IMG/VR virus record: IMGVR_UViG_648276665_000002 | Location: 1-15,065 of that record | DNA: 15,065 nt | Reading direction: 5' to 3' (one strand) | Source: a virus | Lineage: Duplodnaviria > Heunggongvirae > Uroviricota > Caudoviricetes | Shown: piece by piece, positions 1 to 15,065 of the stretch | Numbering within the stretch: the stretch's first letter is position 1 | Layout: each line of letters opens with the position of its first letter | Notes under the pieces: model-generated | Databases searched by the model: none | What the model was told of the DNA's origin: nothing | Seen by the model: the letters and a program-made list of their open reading frames with translations, nothing else | Program-made: the position numbers and the translations under genes

Positions 1-524
1 CCCTGTGAAGATAATAATTGTCGCCCGGCATCTACCCCGCGCCCATCATCCCAGCCACGAATAAACTCACCACGTAAATCAGGCAATTTATTTGTCGGGT
101 AAGCCTTCGCCAGTTTTGGATATTCAACGGCAGAAAAAGCCGCACCGTTGCATTTCAGCCAGCCAGTAGGCGGTGTGGCTGAAGGCCACGGAACAGGCAC
201 ACCAACGGGTAATGCCGAACCTTCTCCCAAACCAAGGTTTTCGAGAGCCGTTTTCACCGTGCCATCCGATTTGATATCACCAAACGGATTCTTGCGGCTT
301 AACAGCAGCGCACGAAGCGCAGTAAGCAGCTGGTCGTGCCTCTCCTTCTCCAGGCTGGCACCGGATGCCTCCACCACGCTGCAGAGTTCTTCCTGCAACA
401 TATCAAAGTAGTCATCATCCAGATCGGTGGCAGGTGTGCCGGTCTGGGGGTTACCACGGGTAAAACCGTTCTTACCCGCGCCGAACTTATCCTTCTGCGC
501 GGTTTTCGTGTCTATACGATGCAT
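1..524 (-). CDS. Tail fibre / tail-collar domain protein, N-terminal 174 codons only (3' end beyond the left window edge)
   Basis: ATG at 524..522 with GGAG about 8 nt upstream; frame open to position 1. Translation [40 protein letters not shown]...[54 protein letters not shown] matches the phage tail collar pattern (PxGW..C.G......YP.L.......LPDLRG.F.RG) by eye. Confidence 0.6.
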
Positions 525-527
525 GGA

Positions 528-641
528 TTACTCCGGATACCCCAGCTCGCGGACATCCTTCCCGGTAGGCTCATCAAACTCCAGTACGGAGAGTGTCTCG
601 CCATGAGCAGTAATCGGTTTATTTAACTCAAGCTCTTTCAT
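528..641 (-). pseudogene. 37-codon remnant resembling the N-terminus of a P2 gpE / Mu-type tail assembly chaperone
   Basis: ATG at 641..639 overlaps the tail tube TAA (TAATG). Translation MKELELNKPITAHGETLSVLEFDEPTGKDVRELGYPE stops at TAA 530..528, far shorter than intact chaperones of this type (about 90-140 aa). The tail-fibre ATG follows one codon later in the same frame. Confidence 0.3.
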
Positions 642-997
642 TACTGGTAATCCCCTTCTTCACCGTGGAACTCAAGATCAACCGTACCTTCTTCGGCATT
701 ATGGTTCGCTTCGCCGTGCAGCCAGGCAGACGACAGTACATAGACCTGACCGTTCGCCAGCTCGGCAGTGATAGTCATCTCATCAGACGAGGTGATTTTG
801 TTCACCGGAAAATTCTTCGGCACCTTGAAAGTCCCTTTGACATAAGGCGCACGGTGAGTTTCCTTGCGGTCCACTGAACCGTCCAGGCCGATGATGTCAT
901 CATTGACCGTCCTGTTCATGGGCACCTCAATGCCGCCGGTCAGCGATAGCTGTTGACCGTCAATTTTGAAATAACAGGTTCCCCCGATACGGGCCAT
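641..997 (-). CDS. Contractile tail tube protein (Mu gpM-like)
   Basis: 118 aa, directly downstream of the sheath gene with abutting boundaries; size, position and sequence character fit myovirus tail tube proteins. Confidence 0.75.
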   Translation of the reverse strand: MARIGGTCYFKIDGQQLSLTGGIEVPMNRTVNDDIIGLDGSVDRKETHRAPYVKGTFKVPKNFPVNKITSSDEMTITAELANGQVYVLSSAWLHGEANHNAEEGTVDLEFHGEEGDYQ

Positions 998-2493
998 TAT
1001 GCAGACTCCTCTGAATACTGAAGACGGAACTGGTTAACCACGGCAAAGACACGCAACTGGTTAACATAGTCAGGCGGGAACAGCGTGTTCAAGCGGTTCG
1101 GATCGCTGGCATCACGCTCCACAACCAGGTACTGCTTAAACAGTTCGTAGTTTTCCACGATCCCCGCACGCTCAAGCTGACGGTAGGTTGCCAGCAGTTC
1201 CCCTTTGATCACCGCCGGGGTGACAATCGCCTGACCGGGACCAAAGCGGGTACCGTCGCTGGCAAGCTTGTGACGCCCGTACTTACTGGTAATGACGGAT
1301 TTCAGTTTGCGCAGCACATACGCGCTGGTATGCAGCGTCTCGCTGTCGAGGTAGCTGTTATCCGCAACACCGTAAGCGTTTTTCCTGTACGTGGTGACAT
1401 CACGCTGAATGCGCAGCACCCCGCTTTCGACATACGCCGTTGCCACGCCATGAGACAGCAGGGTCTGTTGTTCGGTCATCGTGAACCGTTTCCCCTTCGG
1501 CGCAGGCAGCATACCCACCAGCTCACCGGTCTGCGTGGGACGTGCCGGATCGTTGCGAATAAACACCGCTGCGCGGGCGGTACGGCTTGCCGCCAGCTCG
1601 TCGGCAGGCGTCTGGGTCTCTTTTTCGTATCCCGCCAGGGTAATGTGCTGCTGGTTAAACTGGTCACCTGCGGTCACCAGTTCTGACAGCGTGCCGATCT
1701 TTGCCGTATACACATGACCATACAGCTGACGCGCATAGCTCCAGCGACCGCTGGTATCGTTCATCTCGGTCACCAGCGTGTTAACGGAGGCCGTGTCGTT
1801 GAACGGCAGGCCGATATAATCAAACGGCTCATCCGCCATTGCAGCCACCGCGCCGGTGAGAACAGGAGCGCCCGTTCCGGCGGTACCCGTCGCCACGGCA
1901 ATCTGTACGCCCGCTGGCAGCACTTCGCCCCCACCAAAGCCGTAGTAATTGAGGCTGACAGGAATTTCATTCCCGCAAAGCCCCTTATGACGCGCGGTCA
2001 GTGTGACCACGCCTGCCGAAGATGAGGCAGTAAACGGCAGGGTCGGAACGGCATTGATGGCATCTTTGATACTGCTGGCAATCGTCGCGACGTTATCGCC
2101 GTTGGTCACCGGTGCCTGCACGCGGGTACGTCCCACATACACATTCACCGTGCCGGTTTCGGTTGCCTCCCCGGTCACCGTCAGCGTAACCGTTGCCGCC
2201 GCGCCTGTGGCTTCCGGAACGGCAATCACATACAGCTCGCCAAACGGGTCAGTCTGGCGATAAGCCTCGACCATACGCGCCAGCTGACTTCCCGCACCAC
2301 AAATCTGGCGTGCATAGTCTGCCGACGGCATCAGCACCAGACTGTTGGCAACAATCTCTGCACCGTTATTGGCATGACCAATCAGCAGCGATGCTCCGCT
2401 GTCCTGTGCAGTATTCGCCGCCTGGTTATCCATTTCCGCATAAAACAACGGAACCAGCGTATTCGACGGAATGGTGTTAAAGCTTGTCGTCAT
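997..2493 (-). CDS. Contractile tail sheath protein (Mu gpL-like)
   Basis: 498 aa; ATG at 2493..2491; size and sequence character typical of Mu/SfV-type sheath proteins; followed by the tube gene. Confidence 0.8.
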   Translation of the reverse strand: MTTSFNTIPSNTLVPLFYAEMDNQAANTAQDSGASLLIGHANNGAEIVANSLVLMPSADYARQICGAGSQLARMVEAYRQTDPFGELYVIAVPEATGAAATVTLTVTGEATETGTVNVYVGRTRVQAPVTNGDNVATIASSIKDAINAVPTLPFTASSSAGVVTLTARHKGLCGNEIPVSLNYYGFGGGEVLPAGVQIAVATGTAGTGAPVLTGAVAAMADEPFDYIGLPFNDTASVNTLVTEMNDTSGRWSYARQLYGHVYTAKIGTLSELVTAGDQFNQQHITLAGYEKETQTPADELAASRTARAAVFIRNDPARPTQTGELVGMLPAPKGKRFTMTEQQTLLSHGVATAYVESGVLRIQRDVTTYRKNAYGVADNSYLDSETLHTSAYVLRKLKSVITSKYGRHKLASDGTRFGPGQAIVTPAVIKGELLATYRQLERAGIVENYELFKQYLVVERDASDPNRLNTLFPPDYVNQLRVFAVVNQFRLQYSEESA

Positions 2494-2647
2494 CGGTATT
2501 CACCTTTTTATTCACGCGCCGGATATCACCCGCTGCTTCACGGCGCAGCCAGTAGTTGTTCTCGTCAACATTTCGCCCTTCGGCGGGCAAAAGGTCGTCG
2601 CGGGCAGGGTCAGGCACTGACCGCCCTTTAACAGGTTTGACAAACAT
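2477..2647 (-). CDS. Small protein preceding the sheath gene (DUF2635-like, Mu-type tail module)
   Basis: ATG at 2647..2645 with GAGGA about 5 nt upstream; 56 aa, MFVKPVKGRSVPDPARDDLLPAEGRNVDENNYWLRREAAGDIRRVNKKVNTDDDKL; overlaps the sheath start by 17 nt. Below the 60-aa cutoff of the ORF track, found by manual translation. Confidence 0.45.
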   Translation of the reverse strand: MFVKPVKGRSVPDPARDDLLPAEGRNVDENNYWLRREAAGDIRRVNKKVNTDDDKL

Positions 2648-2655
2648 GAGGATCC

Positions 2656-3216
2656 TCAGGAAGGAAGGGTTATTTCGGTGTGATGTTCGATATCGCCGTC
2701 AGGCCCGTTACCGGGATCGAGATAATCGACATCAATCGCCAGCGTTTGCAGTTCATCCAGACTGTTCAGATCATCCTGCTGGCGGGTATCGTCTTCAGTC
2801 AGCTCGCTGATGACCGAAAAATCGAACTGATAAATCAGCTCATGACGATTCAGATCCAGCAGCGTGCCGCCGTCATAGGTAATCGGGTTACCGCACGCTT
2901 CCGGGTTCCAGCCCAGCAGGGCCTTAAAGAGCATCTGCCGGACATCGTCCACCACATCATACGAGGCAAACTGACCGCGCTCATCACGCCCGTTACTCAG
3001 TATGACAACCACGGAGAAACCCTCTTTCAGCTCCTGCCAGTAGTCGGTCTGGCTTTTGTTTTCTCCCGGAGAATCATCACCCGGTACAACATATGCCGCC
3101 GGGAGTTTCAGCTTTCCGACCTCCGGCAGATTTTTGAACTGGGCCGCGCCTGCAACCCGGTTTTCAAAATACGGACAGCGGGCACGCAGTGCAGCAATAA
3201 CAGGCGTCAGTTTCAT
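2656..3216 (-). CDS. Putative tail terminator / neck protein of Mu-type tail module
   Basis: 186 aa; ATG at 3216..3214 overlaps the upstream TGA (ATGA); acidic C-terminal half; sits between head-completion genes and the sheath gene. Confidence 0.45.
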   Translation of the reverse strand: MKLTPVIAALRARCPYFENRVAGAAQFKNLPEVGKLKLPAAYVVPGDDSPGENKSQTDYWQELKEGFSVVVILSNGRDERGQFASYDVVDDVRQMLFKALLGWNPEACGNPITYDGGTLLDLNRHELIYQFDFSVISELTEDDTRQQDDLNSLDELQTLAIDVDYLDPGNGPDGDIEHHTEITLPS

Positions 3217-3719
3217 CTGTGTCGTCGCTCCGGCTTCAGTGATTTACGCAATTCCCGCGCCAGAAAATAGCGTGTCCAGCTGCGGTTCTTTTCAAGCGTT
3301 TCCACCATGAAGTTATTACGTGGAGCCAGTCGCCAGCCGCTGCCACCGGATGCACCACGATGATGACTACGACGACGTTTTGCTCCTCCCCGGACACCAA
3401 AAAACAGAAACGCCGGATAGAAGTCACCAGAGATCATCCGGTTCCCCTTCCCGTTGCGCTGGTTAGGGGCAATGCGTGTCATAAAACCGGCTCGCTTTTT
3501 ACTGGCTCTCGGCACCATATAACCAATCGAACGAGCCAGGCGTCCGGTCTGATAACCGGGGTTTTCACCCGGTGCCGACCGCGCACGGCGCATCACCAGC
3601 CGACGGGCATCACGCATATGACGCTGCCCAATCGTGACAAACGCCCGCCGGACACGAGCGCGGTTAAAGCGCATCTCGGCGGGCTGCTGAACATCAACGT
3701 GAAAAAAGGGAGTCGCCAT
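3213..3719 (-). CDS. HK97 gp10-family head-tail joining / tail completion protein
   Basis: 168 aa; GGAGG 6 nt upstream of ATG 3719..3717; motifs TGRLARSI, FYPAFLFFG and APRNNFMVETLEKNR resemble the gp10 family. Confidence 0.65.
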   Translation of the reverse strand: MATPFFHVDVQQPAEMRFNRARVRRAFVTIGQRHMRDARRLVMRRARSAPGENPGYQTGRLARSIGYMVPRASKKRAGFMTRIAPNQRNGKGNRMISGDFYPAFLFFGVRGGAKRRRSHHRGASGGSGWRLAPRNNFMVETLEKNRSWTRYFLARELRKSLKPERRHR

Positions 3720-4104
3720 TGCTGCCTCCGTGACTCTGCCTACATTCGCCCAGCTCCGTACACTCCAGCAGCAGAAAGCGCCGCGCCCCGTTCAGATCGC
3801 GCTGACGTTTCACCCGGTACACACTGTCATCACAGACCACCTCATAATCAGCAGTGATCCCCCGGCGGTAGCGAATGGTGATGTAATGGGTGATGGCGTC
3901 TCCGGTCTGCGCGGTTTCCTGCCAGGTGGTGGCACTGGTCTGGATAACCTTCGCCCATGCCCGGAACGCAACCGGGTATTGAGGCTCCACGCCAAAGTTA
4001 TCCGCGGGCATATCCACCCGCTGGCGGATCAGGACGCGTTTATTCAGTTCGCCGGGGTCCGGCAGAATGTAGGTTGCGCTGGTCTGCGCCTGACGAATTT
4101 TCAT
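3694..4104 (-). CDS. Head-tail adaptor / head closure protein
   Basis: 136 aa; ATG at 4104..4102 overlaps the connector TGA (ATGA coupling); position between connector and gp10 genes. Confidence 0.6.
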   Translation of the reverse strand: MKIRQAQTSATYILPDPGELNKRVLIRQRVDMPADNFGVEPQYPVAFRAWAKVIQTSATTWQETAQTGDAITHYITIRYRRGITADYEVVCDDSVYRVKRQRDLNGARRFLLLECTELGECRQSHGGSNGDSLFSR

Positions 4105-4424
4105 AGTGGTATAAGGCGATAAGGAACAACCAACCAGTTAAAACTCATTGGCAACTCCATTTTCTCAACGTCTGTAACCGTTGAGCGGTTTTCGTAGAAA
4201 TGGCTGACAAGTAGCAGAAGCGCCAGCTTCACATCATCAGATATCACAAGCCCATCAGGATCATCCGCAGGCCTGTCATCTGCGGTTGCATACAACTTAC
4301 GGTTAAGGAAGTTTTCCGTACGACTCTGAGCGGCCTTACCAAGCAGTTCAAGCAACTCATCTTCATCAGAGAAATCATCATCCAGACGGAGCTGAAGCTT
4401 AATCTCTTCCATTTTTAACAGCAT
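4101..4424 (-). CDS. Head-tail connector protein (gp6-like)
   Basis: 107 aa; AGGAGG 4 nt upstream of ATG 4424..4422; acidic N-terminus (EEIKLQLRLDDDFSDEDELLELL) typical of the connector family; first gene after the major capsid gene. Confidence 0.65.
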   Translation of the reverse strand: MLLKMEEIKLQLRLDDDFSDEDELLELLGKAAQSRTENFLNRKLYATADDRPADDPDGLVISDDVKLALLLLVSHFYENRSTVTDVEKMELPMSFNWLVVPYRLIPL

Positions 4425-4452
4425 AAAACCTCCTGTGCCCGCCAGAACGCGG

Positions 4453-4480
4453 GCCCAAAAAAAACCGCATTACGCGGCGT
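4453..4480 (-). terminator. Candidate partial terminator/attenuator downstream of the major capsid gene
   Basis: On the minus strand a short hairpin (ccgc-gtaat-gcgg) is followed by T8 (plus-strand A8 at 4457-4464), then a second GC-rich hairpin (plus 4445..4456) just before the connector RBS. The stem is short, so low confidence. Confidence 0.25.
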
Positions 4481-4503
4481 GCTGTATTACGTAAAAAGAC
4501 TAA

Positions 4504-5733
4504 TCAACCACCAACGCTACCTTTCCCCACCAGCGCTTTAATGGCAGAGGTGTCTTCCAGGATACAGTCAAAACGATGGAAGGCCAGAAAACCGGTCTGA
4601 TCATATTCCGCGTAACGCTCAACCAGACGTTTAAGAATCATGTATCGCACACGACGGATAATGAAGCGATCAAAGTCACCACAGAACATGAATTTTTTAC
4701 CCGCCCCGATATCATCAATTTCCTGATCAATGACATACGGTACATTCAACACTGAAGCAGGTGCCACACCAACAATATCCGGCAACCATAAAGGGCGTCC
4801 CTGACCGTCTTCCATCTCACTGATCAGTTTCAGCGTATTATCGTTAAATGCCAGGCGGAATTTCGGTCCGCGACGATATGCAGGATCAATGCTGTGTTTC
4901 AGAGCCAGAATTTCCTGCCACTTCACCGCATTTGCCGCGGCAGTCTGTGTTGTGCCGGTCACTGATGCTGCCAGCCCTTTGGGTTGTTTAGGCGTACCAG
5001 CCCCCGTCCCCTGAATCAGATAACGGGCTTCACCACGACCAATACGTTCAGCAATGCGACGGGCAAGATAAGCTTCCATATCGATCGCGCTGTCCTGCAG
5101 CAACTCATTAGACACACGAATGATTTTCGATGTCATTTTGAGCGCCCCAAGGCTTCCCATACCGAAATCGGTGTCTTCTTCACCGGCTTCTTCATTTTCG
5201 CCCAGCAGAACACCAACTTCGGAAGTACCATCAGCTGTTGCCCACTCCATAGTGCGACCGTCAGAAGTGGTCAGAATCTGCGCCACACTGGCGATGCCAC
5301 CGTAGGATTTCATTTTCTCAACAACTTTCGCCAGGAATGTTTCTGGTACGGTATATCCGCCCTTTTCATCCTGAGCTACACCCTGGGCACGAAGTTCACG
5401 CAACGCCTTTCGTTCTTCTGATGTCAGCTCACTGGCACCGTGACGCATCCACTTATCAAAAACCTGAGCTCGTTTCTCATCCTGTTGTGGATTGTTTTCC
5501 GGATCAAGATTCTGACGCTGCTCTTCCTCATTGCTTTCAATGTACGCCTGATCTTGACGACGCAGTTCTTCTTCGCGTGCAATTCGTTCATCAAGCGCTT
5601 CCAGTTCGGATTTTGCTTTGTTCCACTCAGTGCGCTGCTCTTCCGTCCATGCGTTATCACCAATTTTTTCATTCAGGGCGCGCATGTCAGTTGCGATAGT
5701 ATTACGTTTCTGTTTCAGTTCATGCAGTTTCAT
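4504..5733 (-). CDS. Major capsid protein, HK97 fold, with N-terminal scaffolding (delta) domain
   Basis: 409 aa; AAGGAAA RBS; N-terminal ~120 aa highly charged coiled-coil-like region (KQKRNTIATDMRALNEKIG...EEELRRQDQAYIESNEEEQRQ), then a capsid body; directly downstream of the prohead protease. Confidence 0.9.
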   Translation of the reverse strand: MKLHELKQKRNTIATDMRALNEKIGDNAWTEEQRTEWNKAKSELEALDERIAREEELRRQDQAYIESNEEEQRQNLDPENNPQQDEKRAQVFDKWMRHGASELTSEERKALRELRAQGVAQDEKGGYTVPETFLAKVVEKMKSYGGIASVAQILTTSDGRTMEWATADGTSEVGVLLGENEEAGEEDTDFGMGSLGALKMTSKIIRVSNELLQDSAIDMEAYLARRIAERIGRGEARYLIQGTGAGTPKQPKGLAASVTGTTQTAAANAVKWQEILALKHSIDPAYRRGPKFRLAFNDNTLKLISEMEDGQGRPLWLPDIVGVAPASVLNVPYVIDQEIDDIGAGKKFMFCGDFDRFIIRRVRYMILKRLVERYAEYDQTGFLAFHRFDCILEDTSAIKALVGKGSVGG

Positions 5734-5743
5734 GATGTTTCCT

Positions 5744-6364
5744 TTACGCGTTAAGAAGGGTCAGGACGCGTTCACGCGCCATACGTTGATTAATGGCTTT
5801 CTGTAGCGCGCCGCTGTTGCGCGCCTCCTGCCATGCTTTCATGGAGCGAACAGCCGAGTCAGCCTCCTGATAGGCAGGATATGTCACAGGACTGACATCC
5901 AGCAGACGGGAAAAGCGGGTTATCTCGCGAATAACAACCCCGTCCTCATCCTGATACCACTCCTCGCCGTCACGGGCGACACGGAAAGCAAAAGATGACT
6001 GGTTAATATCTCCACGTTGCATCGGGGCCAGCACCAGATCACGAATGGTCTGTGTCTCCGGAGCCTGGATGTCATAGCGCAATCCGCGCTCATCAACTGA
6101 AAGATTCAGCGTGCCTGCTGCACTACGCCCAAGAATAAAATTAGGATCGTGGTTAAACAGTGCGCGTACATCATCACCAAGCACATCGTCAAAAGCGCCG
6201 GGCCGGATGATTTCGCGGAATGAACCAAATATCAGCTCAGAACGACAGTCAAACACCGATCCATAACCGATAATGTGCGCAGGGTTATCGTCATGCCGCT
6301 CAGCACGCACCTCACCGCTGTAACAACGGATTTCACGGTCATTCATTGGTTTTTCCCTCATCAT
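5744..6364 (-). CDS. Prohead maturation protease (HK97 family)
   Basis: Position between portal and capsid genes; sequence character fits HK97 prohead proteases. The ORF-track start at 6403 overlaps the portal gene; ATG codons at 6364, 6361 or 6346 are more likely starts (6346 lies 2 nt past the portal stop). Confidence 0.85.
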   Translation of the reverse strand: MMREKPMNDREIRCYSGEVRAERHDDNPAHIIGYGSVFDCRSELIFGSFREIIRPGAFDDVLGDDVRALFNHDPNFILGRSAAGTLNLSVDERGLRYDIQAPETQTIRDLVLAPMQRGDINQSSFAFRVARDGEEWYQDEDGVVIREITRFSRLLDVSPVTYPAYQEADSAVRSMKAWQEARNSGALQKAINQRMARERVLTLLNA

Positions 6365-7565
6365 TTTTTGGGGGCTTAAAATCTCCTGCCGGGTTAGCAG
6401 CATTCACGCTTACCAGCATCTCATCCAGCCCTTCAACCGGATTCATATCCTCGAATGCGCGGGCCTCATTACGGCTCATCCATCCATCGGTAATAGCGAA
6501 GTGATAGAATTGCGCGCGCTCCTGCGGAGTTCCGCGTAAAAGCCCTGTCAGATTGAACCTGACGTAATACCCGGCGGCTAACTCAGCGCGGGTAAACAAG
6601 CGACGGTTAAGCTCCTGCTCCCAGTTCGTCACCCACGGCATCATCGTGTAACGGACAAACTGAATAGCCTGCGCAGAAATATTGGAGAAGGTGGCTTTTT
6701 CGAGGTCATTAATCATGTGCGCAGGAATATTGAAAATACCGGCAATCATTGAACGGTTCAGTTTCATCATGTCAATGATCTGAGCGTCAACTGGCGACAC
6801 AGTCAGTGCCTTGTAATCCAGATCGGCTGGCAGCAGCATGGTTTTGTTTTCCTGGCTGCGTAACGCCTGCGATGCCTTCTGCCACTGTTCTTTAAGCCAG
6901 CCCCAGCTGTCCTTATTGAGTCCGCTTTTAACGGATACTATCCCCGCCGGACGGGCATTACCGCTGAAGAAGCTTTCTGTGTATTTCTGACCGCTCATCC
7001 CCATGCCTATTGTTTCGGCATGTTGCATAATCGGACTCAGCCCCATCTTCTGATTATTACCCAGCGCACGGATGTGGATCATATCGTCGGGGCTGATCGC
7101 AAACGCCCCATATTCGTTGTACAAACCGTAGGTGTATCGGCCACCAGTATTCATCAGCGTCGTTTCCCACGGCATACAGCAATCCAGGGATATGACTTCA
7201 CCGCGACGATTACGTTTCACCCAGGTATACCCATTCCCCCAGCCAAGGATGTGACGTTGCTTCAGTTCGCGCCATTTGTAACTGGTTTGCCAGGTATTGG
7301 GCTCATCATGAACCAGATAAAACGCCGGATGATCGCGTGCGGGCTCAACCTTCCCATTGTGCCTGCGCATAACATGCAACGGCATCTGGGCAAGGCTGGA
7401 AGACAGGACATAGATACAGGAATACACCGCAGCCAGTTTCATCGCAGTTTCAGGACTGACATAAACGTCTGCCCGGAACAGCCCATCAGTATCAACGGTA
7501 TCCCCGGTTATCGGGGTGGAAGGATTCTCCAGTGATTTACTTCTGAACAGAGCATCAAGCAGCAC
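6339..7565 (-). CDS. Portal protein (HK97 family)
   Basis: 408 aa; the start at 7565..7563 is GTG, preceded by AAGGGGGA; canonical terL-portal-protease-capsid order. Confidence 0.9.
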   Translation of the reverse strand: MLLDALFRSKSLENPSTPITGDTVDTDGLFRADVYVSPETAMKLAAVYSCIYVLSSSLAQMPLHVMRRHNGKVEPARDHPAFYLVHDEPNTWQTSYKWRELKQRHILGWGNGYTWVKRNRRGEVISLDCCMPWETTLMNTGGRYTYGLYNEYGAFAISPDDMIHIRALGNNQKMGLSPIMQHAETIGMGMSGQKYTESFFSGNARPAGIVSVKSGLNKDSWGWLKEQWQKASQALRSQENKTMLLPADLDYKALTVSPVDAQIIDMMKLNRSMIAGIFNIPAHMINDLEKATFSNISAQAIQFVRYTMMPWVTNWEQELNRRLFTRAELAAGYYVRFNLTGLLRGTPQERAQFYHFAITDGWMSRNEARAFEDMNPVEGLDEMLVSVNAANPAGDFKPPKNDEGKTNE

Positions 7566-7716
7566 GCGTCCCCCTTCTGGCCATAGCCAGTGCGCCCACC
7601 AGCAGTAAACCGCCGGACAGCATCAGAGCCGGAGCCATACCAAACTGCAGGTAAAACCCGCACGTAAGCAGGCCAAAACCAGCCAGCCCGATAACATCAG
7701 CAATTAGTGATTTCAT
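7555..7716 (-). CDS. Small putative two-helix membrane protein between terminase and portal
   Basis: ATG at 7716..7714 overlaps the terL TGA (ATGA). 53 aa, [53 protein letters not shown], two hydrophobic stretches; overlaps the portal start by 11 nt. Found by manual translation. Confidence 0.4.
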
Positions 7717-9446
7717 AGAATTAAGAGAGCATCGTCCGGATCAAGAGATGAGAGGAAATCGTCGGGTTCTTTGAGCATTGCCCGACCGATCGCCATAATC
7801 AGTGCAACCGCACCATCGATTTTGTTTTCCGCCTGCTCCTTGACAGGCTTCACCACATCATCGTTACCCGGAATGGTTTTGCCGACCACGTTGCCGATAC
7901 ACCAGGTCATGATGGGATTGCCATCATGATGAAAGCGCCCCGATTCAATTGCCGCTTCCAGCTCTTTCATCGGGTCGGACATGTTGGTGTAGTTCTGAAT
8001 GATAGTGATGGGGTTCAGGTCTTCATCAGCAAGGTCATGTGACAACCCGGTCGCCCCGAAGGGGTCGATGGGTGACTCACTGACCGGGCTGATTTTGTTC
8101 GCCGCTTTGGCCTCCTCGAGGATGTAGCGATAATCCACCTCCGCACCATCGGTAACGGTCAGAACGCCCATTTCCACCCATTTCTGAAAGCGTTCGGCTG
8201 TCCGGCGATCTTCATTTTTCTCGACGCTGTACACCGTGTCATACGGTACCCAGAAGCGCGGAGCCACACTGTAGTAATGCGTTTTACCGTCAATCTCGCG
8301 GGTATAAAGTCGCGCCATGCTGTTCATATCCAGCTTACGCGCCAGGTCAAAGGCCAGAATGCACGGCTGCCCCTCGAACTGCTCAAGGGTCAGTGATTTA
8401 TCCTCGCAGCTCTGCCAGCTCACCAGGTTGAAATACGCCGAACGCGCCGACACCCAGATATTGAGGTGTTTTGTTTTAAAGACGTTTGCCAGACGGGCGT
8501 TATTTTTCGCACGCTGCTGCTGACTTAACAAAAATTCGCGATAAACCGACACGCCAATATTTGGATTGGCTTTTTCCAGCACCTGCGGGTCGGTCCAGTC
8601 ATCGCCTTCGTCAACGGTATAGATGATCCCGAACAGTTCATCGTTGGGTACCGAACCGTTGAGCATCTCGATAACTTCCCGCCGCTTGTCGTAGCACGGC
8701 CCCTCAATGTTGTACCCGGCGGTGGTGATGGCCCACATCAGTGGCTGACGTCGCGCGCCCATCCCGGTAAGCATCGTGGTATAAAGCGCATCGGTGGCGT
8801 GCTCGTGATATTCATCCACCACGGCACAGTGGGGTGATGAACCATCACCGGGGTTACCGATCAGCGGTTCAAACCGCGCGCCATCCTCCGGACGGTTCAT
8901 GTTTGAGGCGTTAACCTCAATCCCGAACGCTTCCGTCAGCATGGGTGTGCGTTTACACATCAGTCGCGCCGGGCGAAAGACTTCCCACGCCTGTTTCTCT
9001 GTCGTGGCACCGGAATACACTTCCGCGCCAAACTCGTTATCACAGGCAAAACAATACAGGGCAACACCGGCAGAGATTGCCGATTTGCCGTTCTTACGGG
9101 GGATTTCGGTATACACCTCCCTGAAGCGGCGCAGCCGGGAGCCTTTATTGACCCAGCCAAACGCACAGCAGATCACAAAGAGCTGCCACGGTTCCAGCGT
9201 GATGGGCATCCTCTTGAATGCCCACTCCCCCTTGGTGTGTGGCAACAGCTGAATAAATTTCGCGGCCCGTTCAGCCAGGTCCTTGTCGAAGCGGTAACGA
9301 AACGACTTACTTTTTTCCGCCATCAGGTCATCAAGATGGCGCTGGCAGGCCTGAATCACAAACTGGCAGGCCACAATCTTTCCGCGCACGACATCACGGG
9401 CATACTGATTGGCAGCATTTACGTTGGGGTAAGATTTCCGGCTCAT
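7713..9446 (-). CDS. Terminase large subunit
   Basis: 577 aa; ATG at 9446..9444 overlaps the terS TGA (ATGA); N-terminal ATPase-like and C-terminal nuclease-like regions; followed by the portal gene. Confidence 0.95.
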
Positions 9447-9937
9447 GATTCGATGATTTTCAGAAACGGGTTAGTGGCTTTCTTCTGCCCCGCCAGGCCA
9501 ATCAGACGCTGGCGGCTGCTGGGGTCGAGTCCGAGCATTGCCCCCGTGCTGCTCATCTCGGACTCCTGTTCTTTCTTGGCGGTCAGCTCCGGATTTTTGA
9601 CCATGCCACCCATTGCACCGGTGATGGTGTTGCCCTGTCTGGCAATATTTTTCACGGCACGCCGCCAGAACTCGTAGGCCACGCACCACCGCTCAAGCAC
9701 CGCGAGGTCAGTCACGCACAGCAGGCCCTGACCGCAGAGTTCTTTGGTTGTCAGTTGCCACATGATCGTGGCGAGAGGGAGATCTTCTTCAGCGAACCAC
9801 TCCGGTGGCTCAACACCTTTGATGGGCGTAAAAACAGGTTCATCTTTATTCAGGGCTCGCTTGCCGGGGTTTCCGGCCAGCGCCTTGCGCGCCGTTGGCT
9901 TGGGGCGACGCCCGGAACGCCCCGCCGTTCCAGCCAT
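9443..9937 (-). CDS. Terminase small subunit (P27-type)
   Basis: ORF-track start at 9946 is GTG; the likely start is ATG 9937..9935, with AGGAG about 8 nt upstream. Basic N-terminus ([13 protein letters not shown]); sits immediately before terL, downstream of the HNH gene. Confidence 0.8.
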
Positions 9938-9961
9938 ATGCGGCACTCCTGGTTAAATTTC

Positions 9962-10045
9962 ATTTTTCGCGGGTATAAAAAAACGATGGGGCGGGCAGTC
10001 CGGAAGACGTCAGGTCACAGGGATTTGACCCGCCCCTCCCCTCTG
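9962..10045 (-). other. Structured intergenic region between HNH and terS: long hairpin plus T7; candidate terminator/attenuator or cos/terminase recognition region
   Basis: Perfect 8-bp inverted repeat ggggcggg (9988-9995) / cccgcccc (10030-10037) with inner palindromes (gacgtc; ggtca/tgacc); on the minus strand it is followed by T7 (plus-strand A7 at 9977-9983). Confidence 0.3.
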
Positions 10046-10062
10046 GCAGTTGAGAACTATTA

Positions 10063-10413
10063 TCACTTTAACCGTTCACGGGCCGTCTTCGCCTTATGAC
10101 ACGGCCAGCACAGACTCTGCAGATTACTGTCGGCATCAGTGCCGCCATGCGCTTTAGGGATGATGTGGTCAACAGTTTTCGCCTCACGCACCACACCAGC
10201 GCGCAGACATAACTGACACAGGCCTTTGTCACGCTTCAGGACACGCGCGCGGATACTGTCCCACTTCGAACCGTAGCCGCGCTGATGACGGGATTGTCCT
10301 GGTTTGTATTGCTTCCAGCCTTCGCTTTTGTGGCTTTCGCAGTAGCCTGACGGGTCTGTGGTTGTAGAGCGGCAGCCGCGAACACGGCAGGCTTTTGGGG
10401 TTCGAGGGGGCAT
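10063..10413 (-). CDS. HNH endonuclease (terminase-associated)
   Basis: 116 aa; N-terminal CxxC pair (CRVRGC...C), then HNH motif DHIIPKAHGGTDADSNLQSLCWPCH; directly upstream of terS as in HK97-like packaging modules. Confidence 0.85.
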   Translation of the reverse strand: MPPRTPKACRVRGCRSTTTDPSGYCESHKSEGWKQYKPGQSRHQRGYGSKWDSIRARVLKRDKGLCQLCLRAGVVREAKTVDHIIPKAHGGTDADSNLQSLCWPCHKAKTARERLK

Positions 10414-11170
10414 TATTAATGTCCTAAATAGTTTCCTCTCTAAAAACTAATTTGTGTTAGGGAAATCATTAAATGAAGTGAACCTTTTAGTACCCACTGT
10501 AAAATTCACTTCATTAATATTTAACCAAATACAATGAATGTTCCAAAAGATGCTAATGATATATTTATCAGAGAATCCATACGAGCCTTAATTTCTGGCG
10601 TATTCTCGACCTCAGTACGCCATTGATTGACTGCCTCAATCATATCTCGACAAAACACATCTATTTGCAACTGAAGTTTGCCATTTAAGTGATTTAAATG
10701 CACTTGGCAATTTGTCCTAGGTGGTGGTGTAAAATTAAACTGCATCATTCTTTTCCTGTTCTCTGGATCCTGTCCAGCATGTAAACAAGAACAACGATAC
10801 AGCCAAAAATCATCCGCATAAAATCGACACTGTTCATGTGTACCGGATGTATATTTATTTTCAAGATAACGAGAAACCCAATCTTTATACCATTTCCCTG
10901 TTTCACCCTTACCTATTTTGGGACGTTCAACGCTCCTGCAAATATCAGGCATAGCAAGAGCCATAAACAATGCCGCTAACCAATTCTCACTTTCAATTGA
11001 AGATTCAATTGATTTTATAAACCTTTCCATAACTCACCTTTATATTATTTGATGATTATATTTATAGCACAGTTACAATCATTTTCCGGAAAATATTTAT
11101 TCATTTTGATATCCTATTTTTAGAATATCCTTTTTATCTCTATTGCATTGCGCTAATGCAGATAACAAAC
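10414..11170. other. AT-rich cargo island A between the lysis cassette and HNH/terminase
   Basis: Base composition drops visibly between about 10414 and 11170 relative to flanking phage genes; contains one well-formed ORF with its own RBS. Confidence 0.6.
10521..11030 (-). CDS. Hypothetical protein of unknown function (cargo of island A)
   Basis: 169 aa; AGGTGA 5 nt upstream of ATG 11030..11028; TAA stop at 10523..10521; AT-rich codon usage unlike neighbouring genes; hydrophobic C-terminal segment (LINISLASFGTFIVFG); no family recognised. Confidence 0.6.
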   Translation of the reverse strand: MERFIKSIESSIESENWLAALFMALAMPDICRSVERPKIGKGETGKWYKDWVSRYLENKYTSGTHEQCRFYADDFWLYRCSCLHAGQDPENRKRMMQFNFTPPPRTNCQVHLNHLNGKLQLQIDVFCRDMIEAVNQWRTEVENTPEIKARMDSLINISLASFGTFIVFG

Positions 11171-11414
11171 TCACATTCAGTTCCAGGCTAGCACCATATG
11201 TCAGTGGACTAGGTACAACTGGAATCGGTGTTTCAGAAGTCAGGCTGGCTGGCAGTGGTACCGCCGGAGTGTTCACGTAAACTGTCCGCGTACTTCCGCA
11301 ACCGGTCAGCAGCGGCAGCAGGCACAGGACGTGAAGCACAATCATCATCCGCAACAGCCACTTTGATATCTTCCTGGGTTCTCTGTGACTCCAGTGCAAT
11401 CTGCTGTTTTGCAT
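11097..11414 (-). CDS. o-spanin (Rz1-like outer-membrane lipoprotein), embedded in/overlapping Rz
   Basis: Out-of-frame ORF overlapping the 3' half of Rz; contains a signal peptide plus lipobox MMIVLHVLCLLPLLTGC and a Pro-rich region. Start is uncertain (ATG 11414 with AGAGG RBS, or ATG 11348/11345). The 3' end lies in AT-rich island DNA. Confidence 0.55.
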   Translation of the reverse strand: MQNSRLHWSHREPRKISKWLLRMMIVLHVLCLLPLLTGCGSTRTVYVNTPAVPLPASLTSETPIPVVPSPLTYGASLELNVSLLSALAQCNRDKKDILKIGYQNE

Positions 11415-11625
11415 GCTGGTTAGCCTCTATAACTGTATTGATGATTTGCAGTGATTGCAGAACGTTACGGGTAATGGCAGTTGCTGATTCAGCATTTCGT
11501 ATAGCCTCATCAGCACGCTCCTTTTCGTGCAGATATTTGCTGTAGTAATGCCCGGCAGACCAGATGAAGGAACCAATGACGGTAACAAAGAAGGCAACAA
11601 TAACCAGCTTATATCTCAGCTTCAT
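11233..11625 (-). CDS. i-spanin (Rz-like)
   Basis: 130 aa; N-terminal TM segment (LVIVAFFVTVIGSFIW) then a long charged helical region; directly downstream of the endolysin and containing the Rz1 ORF. Confidence 0.7.
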   Translation of the reverse strand: MKLRYKLVIVAFFVTVIGSFIWSAGHYYSKYLHEKERADEAIRNAESATAITRNVLQSLQIINTVIEANQHAKQQIALESQRTQEDIKVAVADDDCASRPVPAAAADRLRKYADSLREHSGGTTASQPDF

Positions 11626-12085
11626 TTACCACCCCACCAGCCTCTTTAAACCGGGAAATCAGGTCGCTAATTTTATGTTCATACTGACCGTAACCTGCAC
11701 CAGGTAAAGACGCCCAGATATTGCTGCAACGGTCGATTGCCTGACGAATATTGCCGCGATCAATCATCGGTAAAGCGCCACGCTCTTTAATCTGCTGTAA
11801 TGCCACTGAGTCCTGGCTTCTGGGAGAGAAGTCTTTCAGCCCAAGCTGCTTGCGGTAAGCATCCCACCAACGTGAAAGAAGTTGATAACGGCCTGCAGCT
11901 GTTGATTTGAGTTTCGGGTTTAGCGTGACAAGTTTGCGAGGGTGATCGGAGTAATCAGTGAAGAGTTCGCCACCGACAATAACGTCATAACCGTGGTTAC
12001 GTGTCGGTTGTCGCCCGTTATCCGTTCCTTCTGACCATGCCACCATATCCAGGAAAGCTTTACGCTGGGAATTTAGTACCTGCAT
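11609..12085 (-). CDS. Endolysin, lambda R-type lytic transglycosylase
   Basis: 158 aa; near-colinear match by eye to lambda R (QRKAFLDM.AWSEGTDNGRQ.TRNHGYDVIVGGELFTDYSDHPRKLVTLNPKLKST.AGRYQLLSRWWDAYRKQLGLKDFSP). Confidence 0.9.
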   Translation of the reverse strand: MQVLNSQRKAFLDMVAWSEGTDNGRQPTRNHGYDVIVGGELFTDYSDHPRKLVTLNPKLKSTAAGRYQLLSRWWDAYRKQLGLKDFSPRSQDSVALQQIKERGALPMIDRGNIRQAIDRCSNIWASLPGAGYGQYEHKISDLISRFKEAGGVVNEAEI

Positions 12086-12088
12086 AAA

Positions 12089-12415
12089 TTACTCCTTAGA
12101 GCCACCAAACTTATTACCGATTACTCTCATTGCAGCCCCACGAATAGCATCGACCCCGATCAGCCCAACGCCGCCACCAATGGCAACAGAAAGAGATTTA
12201 GGCCATCCGACATACTCAAGAGCGGATGCAAAAGTCAGCGTCAGAGCACCACAGAGCAAAATCTCGAGCGTTTTTCGTTTCCAGCCACCACCACCGCCAA
12301 AATAGGCAATGCGCAAGCCAGCCATAACGATCGACATAATCACTGCGCCCAGCGGTGTGTCTCCACGCCACCAGCTCTGGACCAACTCCAGCCAGGTATT
12401 TGGGTTATGAGGCAT
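12089..12415 (-). CDS. Holin
   Basis: 108 aa; hydrophobic Gly-rich segments consistent with 2-3 TM helices; immediately upstream of the endolysin. Confidence 0.75.
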   Translation of the reverse strand: MPHNPNTWLELVQSWWRGDTPLGAVIMSIVMAGLRIAYFGGGGGWKRKTLEILLCGALTLTFASALEYVGWPKSLSVAIGGGVGLIGVDAIRGAAMRVIGNKFGGSKE

Positions 12416-12557
12416 TTGTAGTTATCTCTCACCTCGCTGATACAGCAGGTGCAAATTGAGGGAACATCATGTACCGCAAATCAGAAGCGGAAACGTCAAA
12501 GAAGCCGAACCAATGGATAACTGCGGGATAGGTCAGGCCCAACGAATAGCCGGGGCC

Positions 12558-12596
12558 AGAAACGACAAAACCCGCTCGAAGACGGGTTTAAGCTGT
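12558..12596 (-). terminator. Candidate tR'-like intrinsic terminator upstream of the holin
   Basis: Plus 12568-12589 aaacccg-ctcgaaga-cgggttt; on the minus strand the 7-bp stem is followed by ttgtcgttt. Position upstream of the holin resembles the lambdoid pR'-tR' arrangement. Confidence 0.3.
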
Positions 12597-12599
12597 GTG

Positions 12600-12697
12600 G
12601 CGAAGTAACCACTCTTAACAGATTACAAGAATTTTTGCGTACGCGTTAATTTTTTTGTATTTTTCTCATTACACAACATATAAACCCTATGTAAAAA
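12600..12697. promoter_or_regulatory. AT-rich divergent promoter region: candidate late promoter (minus strand) and candidate promoter of the island B operon (plus strand)
   Basis: Plus strand: TTACAA...TTAATT and TTGCGT-17nt-TATTTT hexamer candidates upstream of ATG 12698. Minus strand: TTAACG-16nt-TGTAAT about 40 nt upstream of the tR'-like hairpin. All by eye. Confidence 0.25.
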
Positions 12698-13981
12698 ATG
12701 ACAGCAGAAATAGCCGTATTTAACAAGACCGCAGTAGCTTTAGCCGCAGATTCAGCTGTAACGATTTCTGGAGGCGGCAAACATAAAATCTATAATGGCG
12801 CTGAAAAGCTTTTCGCTCTAACTAAACATCATCCTGTAGGTTTGATGGTATATGGAACTGGTGATCTCTGCACAGCTCCATGGGAGCTTATCATTAAGGC
12901 TTATAGAAAGGATTTAGGCTCTAAATGTTTTGACTCTTTGGAGGAATATGCTGAGGATTTCTTCAATTATCTACAGTCGGCTAAATCAATCATCACACCA
13001 GGTATGCGTGAGGCTCATCTTTATCACTTCCTGAGCGAGATTGTATTCAGCATGCTTGTTGATGCTTTTTCTGAAGGTCTCGAACCAACATATTTCGTTA
13101 ACTTCGATAAGAATCAATTTGTTACAGACCTCACGAATTATTGCAACGATCTCCTTACAAAATTATCTGATATTAATTACTTTGATGGTTTTACTCCGGA
13201 TGATGAACAAGCAGCCCAAACCTATGCTTCATCAGTTACCCAACGCATCATTGCTCAAAAGTTTAGTGACTTTGATTCAATATCCATAACCCCACAGTTG
13301 ACAAAAGCAGTTAGTGATGTATTGGCAGCTATGATATGCAAGCAAAGTGATATTGGTTCCGTCTCTGGGATTGTGATTGCAGGTTATGGCGATAAAGACT
13401 ATTACCCTAAAGTATTATCATATGAAGTTTGTGGCTTCTTTAATGATAAAATCAGGAAAACCACAGATGCTGACAAGTGCTGCATCACTCCTAATTGCGG
13501 AGTGACTCCCTTTGCGCAAGAGGATGAAGTTTCTGCTTTCATGCAAGGAGCTAGTTCACATCTTATTCAAAATCTTCATGCTGAGTATCAACGTTCTATC
13601 GGCGATTTACTTGATGGTATTGATTCAGTAATCACAGATTTGGTGCCCACTTCAGATATCGAAGGAGCCAAGGATGCTATAGTTGATGTAGTGCGCAGGA
13701 CTGTTTCCGATTGCAAGGGGCGTATTGATAGCTTTGTCCGAGAAAACTATGTTGACAAAGTCGTAAATATGATCGAGTTTTTACCCAAGCAAGATTTAGC
13801 TTATATGGCTGAATCATTAGTAAATTTAACCGCTTTCAAGCGCAAGGTCTCCGATGATACTGAAACAGTGGGAGGCCCCATAGATGTTGCAATCATTTCT
13901 AAAGCTGATGGTTTTATCTGGGTTAAACGTAAGCACTATTTTGCAAAAGAACTGAACCATCACTACTTTTCACGGTCATAG
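12698..13981 (+). CDS. 427-aa protein with a putative N-terminal-nucleophile (HslV/proteasome-beta-like) hydrolase domain and an unassigned C-terminal region
   Basis: ATG 12698, TAG at 13979-13981. Begins M-T (MTAEIAVFNKTAVALAADSAVTISGGGKHKIYNGAEKLFAL..VGLMVYGTGDL); compare HslV [24 protein letters not shown]...KKVRRL...AGFAGGTAD. Thr directly after Met, Asp at the Asp17-equivalent position, KLF as in proteasome GKKLF, a GxG-D motif, and CGVTPFAQ (267-274) versus HslV GSGGPYAQ. No clear SD upstream. Confidence 0.6.
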   Translation: MTAEIAVFNKTAVALAADSAVTISGGGKHKIYNGAEKLFALTKHHPVGLMVYGTGDLCTAPWELIIKAYRKDLGSKCFDSLEEYAEDFFNYLQSAKSIITPGMREAHLYHFLSEIVFSMLVDAFSEGLEPTYFVNFDKNQFVTDLTNYCNDLLTKLSDINYFDGFTPDDEQAAQTYASSVTQRIIAQKFSDFDSISITPQLTKAVSDVLAAMICKQSDIGSVSGIVIAGYGDKDYYPKVLSYEVCGFFNDKIRKTTDADKCCITPNCGVTPFAQEDEVSAFMQGASSHLIQNLHAEYQRSIGDLLDGIDSVITDLVPTSDIEGAKDAIVDVVRRTVSDCKGRIDSFVRENYVDKVVNMIEFLPKQDLAYMAESLVNLTAFKRKVSDDTETVGGPIDVAIISKADGFIWVKRKHYFAKELNHHYFSRS

Positions 13982-14004
13982 CAACAAATAGACAAGGGGA
14001 ACAC

Positions 14005-14154
14005 ATGTCACTTAAGCAAGCCTATGAAAGAACTCAACCCAAAAGCATCAATGATTTCTTTCAGTTGAGTACTTCTGGAAAGAGTCGACGTACTGTAACA
14101 AGCCAATCTAACTTCTTTACTAAATTGAACAAAACATTACCTGCACAATCCTAA
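14005..14154 (+). CDS. Small hydrophilic basic protein (49 aa), second gene of the island B operon
   Basis: AAGGGGA 5 nt upstream of ATG 14005; MSLKQAYERTQPKSINDFFQLSTSGKSRRTVTSQSNFFTKLNKTLPAQS; TAA at 14152-14154 immediately followed by the terminator hairpin. Confidence 0.4.
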   Translation: MSLKQAYERTQPKSINDFFQLSTSGKSRRTVTSQSNFFTKLNKTLPAQS

Positions 14155-14193
14155 AAAGTTAAAAGCCACTACGGTGGCTTTTAACTTTTATTT
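14153..14193. terminator. Bidirectional intrinsic terminator shared by the island B operon (+) and the Q gene (-)
   Basis: Perfect 12-bp stem gttaaaagccac / gtggcttttaac (14158-14169 / 14174-14185) with tacg loop, flanked by A5 on the 5' side and ttttattt on the 3' side, so a U-tract follows the hairpin on either strand. Confidence 0.65.
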
Positions 14194-14538
14194 ACATGCA
14201 ATAACGCTCGTAATACCCTCTACAAAACCAATTGCAGTTTGCAATTCCTTTCTAATCGTGCCATCTGAACACCTTCTCTTTTTGGCAATAGTGCGTAATG
14301 AGATACCAATAACAAAGTGGGCTATGATGAGCTCATATTCCTCTGGTTTATACCTTCTCAACCGAGCCACACAACTGTCTATCATAATGCCTTCGTCATC
14401 ATCACACTGAATCCGTGACTTTTTGCCATGAGGTAAAAGCCCCTTGAAGCCTGCTGCTATCGGCTGCCAGTCCACGCCACTGTTATCTGCTGCAGCCCAT
14501 GCTCCCCAGCGGTCCAATACTTCATACATATCACGCAT
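14188..14538 (-). CDS. Late-gene antiterminator Q (QuuD-like)
   Basis: ORF-track start at 14553 is TTG; likely start ATG 14538..14536 with GGAGAAAG upstream. MRDMYEVLDRWGAWAAADNSGVDWQPIAAGFKGLLPHGKKSRIQCDDDEGIMIDSCVARL parallels E. coli DLP12 QuuD (VLERWGAWAA...IAAGFKGL...SRPQCCDDD) as recalled from memory. Confidence 0.8.
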   Translation of the reverse strand: MRDMYEVLDRWGAWAAADNSGVDWQPIAAGFKGLLPHGKKSRIQCDDDEGIMIDSCVARLRRYKPEEYELIIAHFVIGISLRTIAKKRRCSDGTIRKELQTAIGFVEGITSVIACK

Positions 14539-14555
14539 CAACTTTCTCCACAAAA

Positions 14556-15065
14556 TCAGGCCAGCACGCCAATTGCCAGCGCACGATCGATAAAACGAAA
14601 TACCAGCTCCAGCTGGGAGCCATACTTCTCTTCAAATGCCACGGTATCCGCATGCAGCTCGTCGTGATGCTTTCTGCACAAAGGCAACACAAAGAGGTCA
14701 TGCGCTTTTGTACCCATCCCACCCTGACCGTGGCCTATCAGGTGGTGGGGATCATCAGCAGGCTTTCCACAACATGCACACGGCTGTGTCTTAACCCAGC
14801 GCGTGTACTTTTCATTAACCCAGCGGCGACGTTTTGGGCGTAACATAAAAGACTCCGGCGACTCCGGATCCACTTTCAGCGCCAGCACCTTTTTCGCCTT
14901 ATCCTGGATGATGCTGGTAGCAGGAACCGAAGGCACAAGGTCACTTTCCCGGGTAACAGACGGCACAACAGGCTTCGGTAATCTCAGTGCCTTACGGGCT
15001 GCACTTTCCGGTAAGGCATCCGCCAGGTCATTACGAACCAGCCACCAGCACAGTTCCGGCAGTCG
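14556..15065 (-). CDS. nin-region protein, DUF968-like (putative nuclease); 5' end beyond the right window edge
   Basis: Cys/His-rich motif CACCGKPADDPHHLIGHGQGGMGTKAHDLFVLPLCRKHHDELH. The reading frame stays open upstream of the ORF-track start (GTG at 14966) to position 15065 (…RLPELCWWLVRNDLADALPESAARKALRLPKPV-VPSVTRE…), so the gene probably starts outside the window. Confidence 0.55.
   Translation of the reverse strand, partial: RLPELCWWLVRNDLADALPESAARKALRLPKPVVPSVTRESDLVPSVPATSIIQDKAKKVLALKVDPESPESFMLRPKRRRWVNEKYTRWVKTQPCACCGKPADDPHHLIGHGQGGMGTKAHDLFVLPLCRKHHDELHADTVAFEEKYGSQLELVFRFIDRALAIGVLA

Follow-up and report, generated by a model that had tools for sequence, protein, structure and literature searches.

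The DNA analysed here, a stretch of 15,065 nucleotides from a virus record of IMG/VR (IMGVR_UViG_648276665_000002, positions 1 to 15,065; hereafter the window), very probably represents the late operon of a lambdoid prophage of the SfV/SfI/e14 type that has lost 7.2 kb by a deletion between two TATCC pentamers, the left end of which lies in a recurrent breakpoint, GGGGTATCCC, within the gene for a tail assembly chaperone. An initial annotation, made from the letters of the window, had already proposed that an internal deletion removed the tape measure and baseplate genes and had suggested an alignment with intact relatives as a check. That alignment confirmed the loss and allowed us to place the breakpoint to the base.

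All genes under study are encoded on the minus strand (Table 1). The sheath is equal in length to SfV orf11 and to the sheath of a prophage of E. coli UTAK-10 (L003), and an identical protein is recorded from E. coli MS 78-1 as EFK75959.1, which points to MS 78-1 as the likely source strain. The TAA stop codon of the tube gene (643-641) shares base 641 with the ATG of the following open reading frame (TAATG), as expected from the earlier description of a gpE-type chaperone start overlapping the tube stop. This frame of 37 codons scored 27.2 bits against the Pfam profile PF10109 (Phage_TAC_7, 'E, or 41 or 14'; cutoff 25), to which it aligned over positions 2-31 of 79, compared with positions 2-78 and 60.3 bits for the intact 89-aa relative. 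Moreover, the chaperone portion matched L003 and SfV base for base up to ...GAGCTGGGGTATCC. Judged from the profile match, the stub is the N-terminal third of a gpE-type chaperone, and this match stops short of the full-length profile, which marks the stub as a fragment of a PF10109 family member and not as a functional member.

Downstream, the TAA of the stub (530-528) is separated by a single codon, TCC (527-525), from the ATG of the fibre gene (524-522) in the same frame, in line with the order that had been read earlier, and the fibre frame carries a Phage Tail Collar domain (PF07484, E=2.4e-15). Two details of that reading had to be refined. The GGAG that was taken as the fibre gene's own ribosome-binding site is present at 534-531, ahead of the fibre ATG, but it is part of the native junction between ymfQ and the fibre gene; likewise, the stop after 37 codons exists, but the stop codon belongs to ymfQ and is met in frame by the chaperone remnant. 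The ymfQ gene of L003 matches PF10076 (Pfam), and window 1-539 aligns to adjoining ymfQ and stfP sequences in hundreds of E. coli genomes. The left edge of the window (1-3) is a contig end within the fibre gene, whose downstream part is repeated in the genome.

Table 1. Features of the prophage late operon and of the deletion junction in the window.
Feature	Position	Strand	Remarks
stfP-type tail fibre gene, 5' part, 174 codons	3..524	-	cut by the window/contig end
ymfQ (Mu gp48 baseplate gene), last four codons	528..539	-	TAT CCG GAG TAA; aligned with the end of L003 ymfQ
37-codon stub ORF	528-641	-	translation MKELELNKPITAHGETLSVLEFDEPTGKDVRELGYPE*
Deletion junction, sole kept TATCC copy	535..539	-	TATCC at both deletion ends in L003 and SfV
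Decamer remainder GGGGTATCC of GGGGTATCCC (chaperone nt 99-108)	535..543	-	recurrent breakpoint in many other genomes
Chaperone (gpE type) remnant	535..641	-	nt 1-107 of a 270-nt gene
Tail tube gene	641..997	-	118 aa, full length; PF10618, E=3e-33
Tail sheath gene	997..2493	-	498 aa, full length; PF04984/PF17481/PF17482
Rest of late operon	2477..12415	-	all full length; collinear with L003
cos cohesive-end decamer TGCCCGCCCC	9988..9997	-	between the HNH and TerS genes

To delineate the missing segment, we compared the window with phage SfV (NC_003444) and with L003. Both show the order that the initial annotation had regarded as normal, in which chaperone, tape measure and baseplate genes precede the fibres: tube, 89-aa chaperone, tape measure, DNA circulation protein (Mu N), baseplate P, gp45, gp46, gp47, gp48/ymfQ and fibre. 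The tape measure gene of L003 (13370-15206) is annotated as frameshifted, and the UTAK-10 prophage may therefore be defective too, which makes SfV the safer comparator. Megablast searches against 5,426 complete E. coli genomes and 50,697 phage records returned matches of 97-99% identity to window 535-2500 from SfI, SfII, SfV and many E. coli prophages. The homology began at exactly window 535 both for SfI, SfII and SfV (97-98%) and for the E. coli prophages (99%), and the homology to the ymfQ end and stfP stopped at window 539-540. No record in either collection covered 80% of window 1-2500, and the best whole-window relatives contained approximately 7-8 kb of extra DNA between the two window parts. 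Chaperone nt 107 is fused to the last 12 nt of ymfQ (the match of window 1-539 takes in the last 15 bases of ymfQ and the fibre gene), and 7,192 bp are missing relative to L003 and 7,191 bp relative to SfV. Since the homology to intact phages breaks exactly at this junction, the arrangement is not a chance pattern. Furthermore, intact relatives that naturally have this layout, which would have offered another reading, were found in 0/50,697 phage records and 0/5,426 complete E. coli genomes; the gene order of the window is therefore no natural arrangement.

The two ends of the missing segment in L003 read ...GGGGTATCC/CTACC in the chaperone gene and ...AAATATCC/GGAGTAA in ymfQ (the slash marks the break), 7,192 bp apart. 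In longer context, the intact sequences are ...GAGCTGGGGTATCC/CTACCAG and, at the end of ymfQ, ...TTTTTAAATATCC/GGAGTAATCCATG, and the window joins them as ...GAGCTGGGGTATCCGGAGTAATCCATG with a 5-nt overlap and zero inserted bases. A random junction would show at least 5 nt of microhomology with a chance of approximately 0.005 (about 0.5%). A direct repeat at both ends, a single copy left and no foreign DNA characterize the junction as that of a microhomology-mediated (illegitimate) deletion, and a single illegitimate recombination between the two TATCC pentamers very probably removed the 7.2 kb. Both pentamers encode Tyr-Pro in their respective genes and lie in one reading frame; because they share this frame, the stub reads into the ymfQ stop and the fibre gene retains its native upstream context. 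An IS-mediated deletion was considered and rejected, with no extra bases at the window junction and no IS186 at the site in the 5,426 genomes or in the junctions that we fetched.

The segment lost comprises chaperone codons 37-89 together with the frameshift extension, the tape measure gene, the gene for the Mu-N-like DNA circulation protein, baseplate P, gp45, gp46, gp47 and gp48/ymfQ except for its last four codons. For this part of intact relatives (L003 15206-15617), several database proteins (P0046, P0052 and P0161) run from the chaperone frame into ...RLNTSLIAFFDCASYWRINPFELLNMPISEIPLLVSQANRIEQEKRTHG, the sequence expected of a frameshift-extended (gpE+E'-like) chaperone product. Taken alone, the window deletion is ordinary prophage decay, a textbook short-homology deletion.

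The prophage is lambdoid and combines an HK97-like head with the Mu-like contractile tail of the SfV/SfI/e14 group, and the remainder of its late operon is intact. The late genes upstream of the sheath encode a DUF2635 protein, tail terminator, neck, head-closure and connector proteins, capsid, protease, portal, TerL, TerS, HNH and the lysis proteins, with the same lengths as in L003 and SfV. Window 535-12655 aligned to L003 at 98.1% identity over 12,121 columns (spans of 12,121 bp and 12,120 bp, respectively), and it was collinear with the SfV/SfI/e14-type prophages at 97-99% identity and essentially free of indels against L003. Every gene present thus has the order and identity of an SfV/e14-type prophage with a Mu-like tail, and the block from tape measure to gp48 is absent through the deletion. 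On these alignments, the deletion is apparently a single and recent lesion in an otherwise complete late operon; it looks recent because all other late genes are full length.

Several further observations concern regions outside the deletion. In the cos region (approximately 9988-10035, minus strand), the element GGGTCAAATCCCTG lies 24 nt upstream of TGCCCGCCCC and is nearly invariant across seven phages of E. coli, Salmonella and Klebsiella, and GGGGCGGG and CCCGCCCC form an inverted repeat flanking the cos cut site. Between the holin gene and the Q antiterminator gene, a 427-aa ORF (window 12698-13981, plus strand) takes the place of the L003 cargo genes. It had no match in Pfam, NCBIfam or PADLOC, and the cargo segment containing it was covered by only 9 complete genomes. 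ETEC strains have the same gene in a lambda-like prophage, there placed after Q. The gene resembles a mobile 'moron'. The ETEC prophage had been a candidate for the closest intact relative by virtue of this cargo gene; being a lambda-like siphovirus prophage, it was useless for the tail comparison.

We considered whether the junction could be an artefact of assembly or library construction, with an intact tail module in the real genome. The exact 37-aa product is recorded on one contig, Logan SRR088923_177 (14,611 bp), which ends at window 3 and is identical to window 3-10641 over the 10,639 bases compared (0 mismatches). The exact junction was found zero times in GTDB representatives, JGI metagenomes and IMG/VR, and it was absent from the 5,426 complete E. 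coli genomes and the 50,697 phage records. That the junction is known from one sample only, and that the window begins at a contig end within a repeated fibre gene, would suit an artefact. However, the 5-nt overlap is far under the k-mer of any assembler, so that a graph collapse cannot have made the junction; the two assemblies, that of the window source and that of Logan, agree over 10.6 kb, although they may share one read set; and other strains show like junctions at this site, both in complete genomes and in long contigs. Given an overlap too short to collapse the two regions and the comparable junctions in finished genomes, we hold an artefact to be very unlikely.

The left end of the deletion coincides with a position at which many other genomes break. 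In public assemblies, approximately 26 independent rearrangements have a breakpoint within GGGGTATCCC (codons 34-36), with both directions represented; this number derives from called ORFs in protein clusters and not from a uniform breakpoint sample. In the 90%-identity cluster of the stub, the other stubs are 34-47 aa long and lose chaperone identity after ...RELG, ...RELGY or ...RELGYP; two of them are simple frameshifts in the C run and one stems from a noisy assembly, and the rest are true rearrangements. In their contigs, deletions of 454 bp, 5.3 kb, 6.2 kb and 7.1 kb join the chaperone gene to the tape measure gene, gp46, gp47 and ymfQ, respectively. Inverted partners included a fibre-assembly gene, a fibre fragment beside an invertase gene and an HNH gene, and host partners beyond the prophage were found on the prfC side and the potB-phoQ side. 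At the DNA level, chaperone identity ended after nt 102-108 in 11/11 junctions, and the left-retained junctions shared 1-5 nt with the partner wherever the partner was found in L003.

The breakpoints were counted from both sides. With chaperone residues 1-40 as the query, short forms were recovered in 28 clusters; of the true junctions among them, 16 fell in codons 34-36 versus approximately 9 at the other detectable codons (binomial p = 2e-13). The mirror-image query with residues 37-89 identified ten hybrids, in which unrelated N-termini were joined to the chaperone from codon 33-37, versus two elsewhere (p = 9e-10). The partners in these hybrids come from genes that lie upstream in this type of prophage (sheath, tail completion, portal, LexA-like and early genes), and each shares 2-9 nt with GGGGTATC. 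The left-retained ends extend as far as nt 108, whereas the right-retained ends start from about nt 100; the overlap of approximately 10 nt is GGGGTATCCC itself. Judged by the position of its left end, the window deletion is one member of this junction set. The 34-aa stub type is present in eight complete genomes, and strain LR-46 carries an HNH'::'chaperone fusion beginning at nt 103. In LR-46 (NZ_AP027537; L150 6863-7168), the fused gene is annotated by RefSeq as a 101-aa 'phage tail assembly protein' beside DLP12-type lysis genes, and the protein consists of residues 1-46 of an HNH-like endonuclease followed by chaperone residues 35-89.

Hotspot events are rare per copy. In complete genomes, 904/912 records were intact across the hotspot. 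Among the IMG/VR loci with the 18-mer left of the site, 117/119 were true chaperone genes, and since all 117 (117/117) were intact at the hotspot, this sample added no junctions; L097 and L129, which had been candidates for IMG/VR breaks, proved to be chance 18-mer matches in unrelated GC-rich phages. A query with the full-length chaperone protein gave no short forms among the best 120 matches listed. No paper on a recurrent breakpoint in this chaperone gene was found in the limited literature searched. In addition, two weaker recurrent breakpoints were observed at L003 sense positions 20400-20404 and 22184-22187 (window approximately 3457-3461 and 1674-1677), each represented by three independent remnants with breakpoints within 4 nt. 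The former lies just after GGGTGAAAACCCC in a 168-aa gene (window 3213-3719), and the latter lies at GCTGGTG/A in the sheath gene, a 7/8 match to Chi.

Because its left breakpoint is non-random, the window event was probably begun by a DNA end or replication end at GGGGTATCCC. Such an end, arising by cleavage or from stalled replication, would form at GGGGTATCCC and would then be joined via 1-5 nt of microhomology. We tentatively propose, with slightly less than even confidence, that GGGGTATCCC (codons 34-36) is a nucleotide-precise, two-sided E. coli hotspot for prophage-inactivating rearrangements at which something cuts or stalls, possibly the terminase or the HNH protein acting on a cos mimic, and that the window deletion is one outcome. 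If this is true, the decay of SfV/e14-type prophages would be driven in part by a built-in fragile site and not by random deletion. Models of prophage decay usually assume random deletion and subsequent selection; a site broken within one stretch of 10 bases in dozens of independent lineages, whichever way the rearrangement runs, would represent a concrete, testable case of sequence-directed prophage inactivation and would offer a handle on the enzyme.

As to what acts at the site, a mechanism without any nuclease is conceivable but doubtful: replication would pause at the near-palindrome CTGGGGTATCCCTACCAG, and the nascent end would switch template via microhomology in a copy-choice or MMBIR-like manner. 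The junction microhomology of 1-9 nt agrees with this, as do the several inverted partners (L013, L017 and L020), which are typical of template switching, and the use of the site as leaving point and landing point alike, but the predicted hairpin is very weak (3 + 2 bp, by eye). Template switching fits the inverted partners equally well as the packaging nuclease does. In the latter case, the prophage's own TerL/TerS and HNH would occasionally cut GGGGTATCCC as a mimic of a conserved cos element, and the ends would be joined by microhomology, which we consider unlikely. The pattern GGGT-N(0-4)-ATCCCT occurs just twice in the 38.9-kb L003, on the same strand and against an expectation of 0.38 per locus, one copy being the hotspot and the other the cos element GGGTCAAATCCCT, whose conservation extends from phages of E. 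coli to those of Klebsiella. Furthermore, the ends at nt 108 and approximately nt 100 resemble a staggered cut of about 10 nt, the length of the cohesive end of SfI (PMC3636060), and TerL, TerS and HNH are intact in the window. Nevertheless, the mapped cos nicks are 24 and 34 nt downstream of the GGGTCAAATCCCT element and not inside it, the motif match came after several other motifs had been tried, and packaging cuts occur in cells that normally lyse. A direct likeness of the hotspot to the cos cut site, tried separately, was weak (local alignment scores of 14-16; 11/21 for the cosN decamer by hand) and was discarded.

Transposition offers a further route. Elements of the IS186/IS4 type prefer targets composed of a G-run, a spacer and a C-run and generate target duplications of approximately 10 bp; a published IS186 study is said to give a consensus target sequence. 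Insertion of such an element by its transposase with later excision or deletion could accommodate the composition of the site, which is G4-N3-C3, the position of IS186A of K-12 in GGGG-ATCACT-CCCC, and a further recurrent breakpoint, which adjoins GGGTGAAAACCCC. Yet IS186 was joined to the site in 0/5,426 complete genomes (a chimeric query of chaperone and IS186 had no match at a coverage of at least 80%), no junction contained IS186 sequence, and no stub read into an IS186 end, which leaves this route improbable. A one-sided Chi-like model, in which RecBCD would cut 4-6 nt downstream of GCTGGGGT, a hotspot sequence matching Chi at 6/8 positions, fitted the first left-retained junctions and was ruled out by the reciprocal ones; a Chi-stimulated RecBCD end is rejected because the junctions lie on both sides. 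The 26 junction partners comprise tape measure, gp46, gp47, ymfQ, tfa, sheath, portal, HNH and host genes, and site-specific recombination by Pin or an integrase, for which the partner needs a fixed site, does not fit because these partner sites are all different. A Pin/Gin pseudo-site (gix/hix half-site) placed by eye was one base out of register and predicted a crossover outside the breakpoints. CRISPR targeting of the hotspot likewise received no support: a 75-nt query at an E-value limit of 10 gave no short match outside chaperone genes in the 5,426 genomes, the weakest match being a 43-nt prophage junction.

Contractile-tail phages of the Mu, P2 and T4 types build the tail on the baseplate around the tape measure with the help of the chaperone. 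Since the baseplate and the tape measure are gone, no tail nucleation would be expected, and there are good grounds to conclude that the prophage should be unable to make tails alone. The head, packaging and lysis genes look intact, and the sheath, tube and fibre genes remain; we infer that induction would yield at best DNA-filled tailless heads together with free sheath and tube protein, and that a related helper would be needed for spread. Tailed phages as a rule build heads and tails apart from each other before joining them, and tails could in principle come from a related prophage in the same cell. The arrangement might accordingly be functional, either as a tail-less, helper-dependent element or with tail genes elsewhere acting in trans. 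Besides the separate assembly of heads and tails, the intactness of all head, packaging and lysis genes and the presence of more than one such prophage in many E. coli genomes (up to 4 places per genome) speak for this idea. However, the retained sheath and tube serve no purpose alone, a chimeric 37-codon ORF is left at the junction, and the allele is a singleton with no conserved lineage; in addition, the sequence is 98-99% identical to complete phages, which leaves no time for adaptation. A functional arrangement is thus highly improbable, and the deletion is best read as marking the prophage as tail-defective, which helps the annotation of the strain, probably E. coli MS 78-1, and the prediction of infectious phage release.

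With respect to known systems, SfV, SfI, SfII, SfIV and intact e14-like prophages have the same gene order as the window, with 97-99% DNA identity from the lysis genes through the tube, and the identity with the SfV group resumes at the ymfQ end and the fibre gene. Compared with this group, the window is without 7.2 kb from chaperone codon 36 to the ymfQ end and carries a different cargo gene between holin and Q. SfI belongs to the myoviruses and has a contractile tail, and the organisation of its morphogenesis genes follows that of SfV and e14 (PMC3636060). Defective e14-type remnants are common, and in those of strain 2018-05-2CC (NZ_AP027877) and of the 34-aa stub type (P0003), short-homology deletions likewise fuse the chaperone to downstream tail genes. 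These remnants have other end points and more deletions in head and sheath genes, whereas the window prophage has only one lesion. In 2018-05-2CC (L001 9651-9720), an independent deletion runs from chaperone codon 59 to mid-ymfQ through a repeat that agrees at 9 of 10 nt (GTGCGGCTG and GTGCGGATG); its start at codon 59 lies outside the hotspot, and the prophage also has sheath and head deletions.

Tailocins and cf-PICI satellites are likewise derived from phages and carry a partial set of virion genes. Tailocins keep tails and lose heads, which is the opposite of the window prophage, and satellites form conserved lineages and have a regulation of their own; the window, by contrast, represents a one-off deletion in a standard phage genome. 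An identity as tailocin or satellite was therefore rejected, the allele being a singleton, nearly identical to full phages, with sheath and tube kept in the absence of a baseplate. Short-homology illegitimate recombination in E. coli is a class studied by assays of lambda Spi- aberrant excision; papers on this class include PMC11372144 and PMC3375238. The window junction resembles this class in being clean, with few shared bases and no mobile element. In contrast to that class, one partner site is here reused within a few bases and in both directions, and this reuse of a single site argues for a site-specific cause over the random pairing of short repeats.
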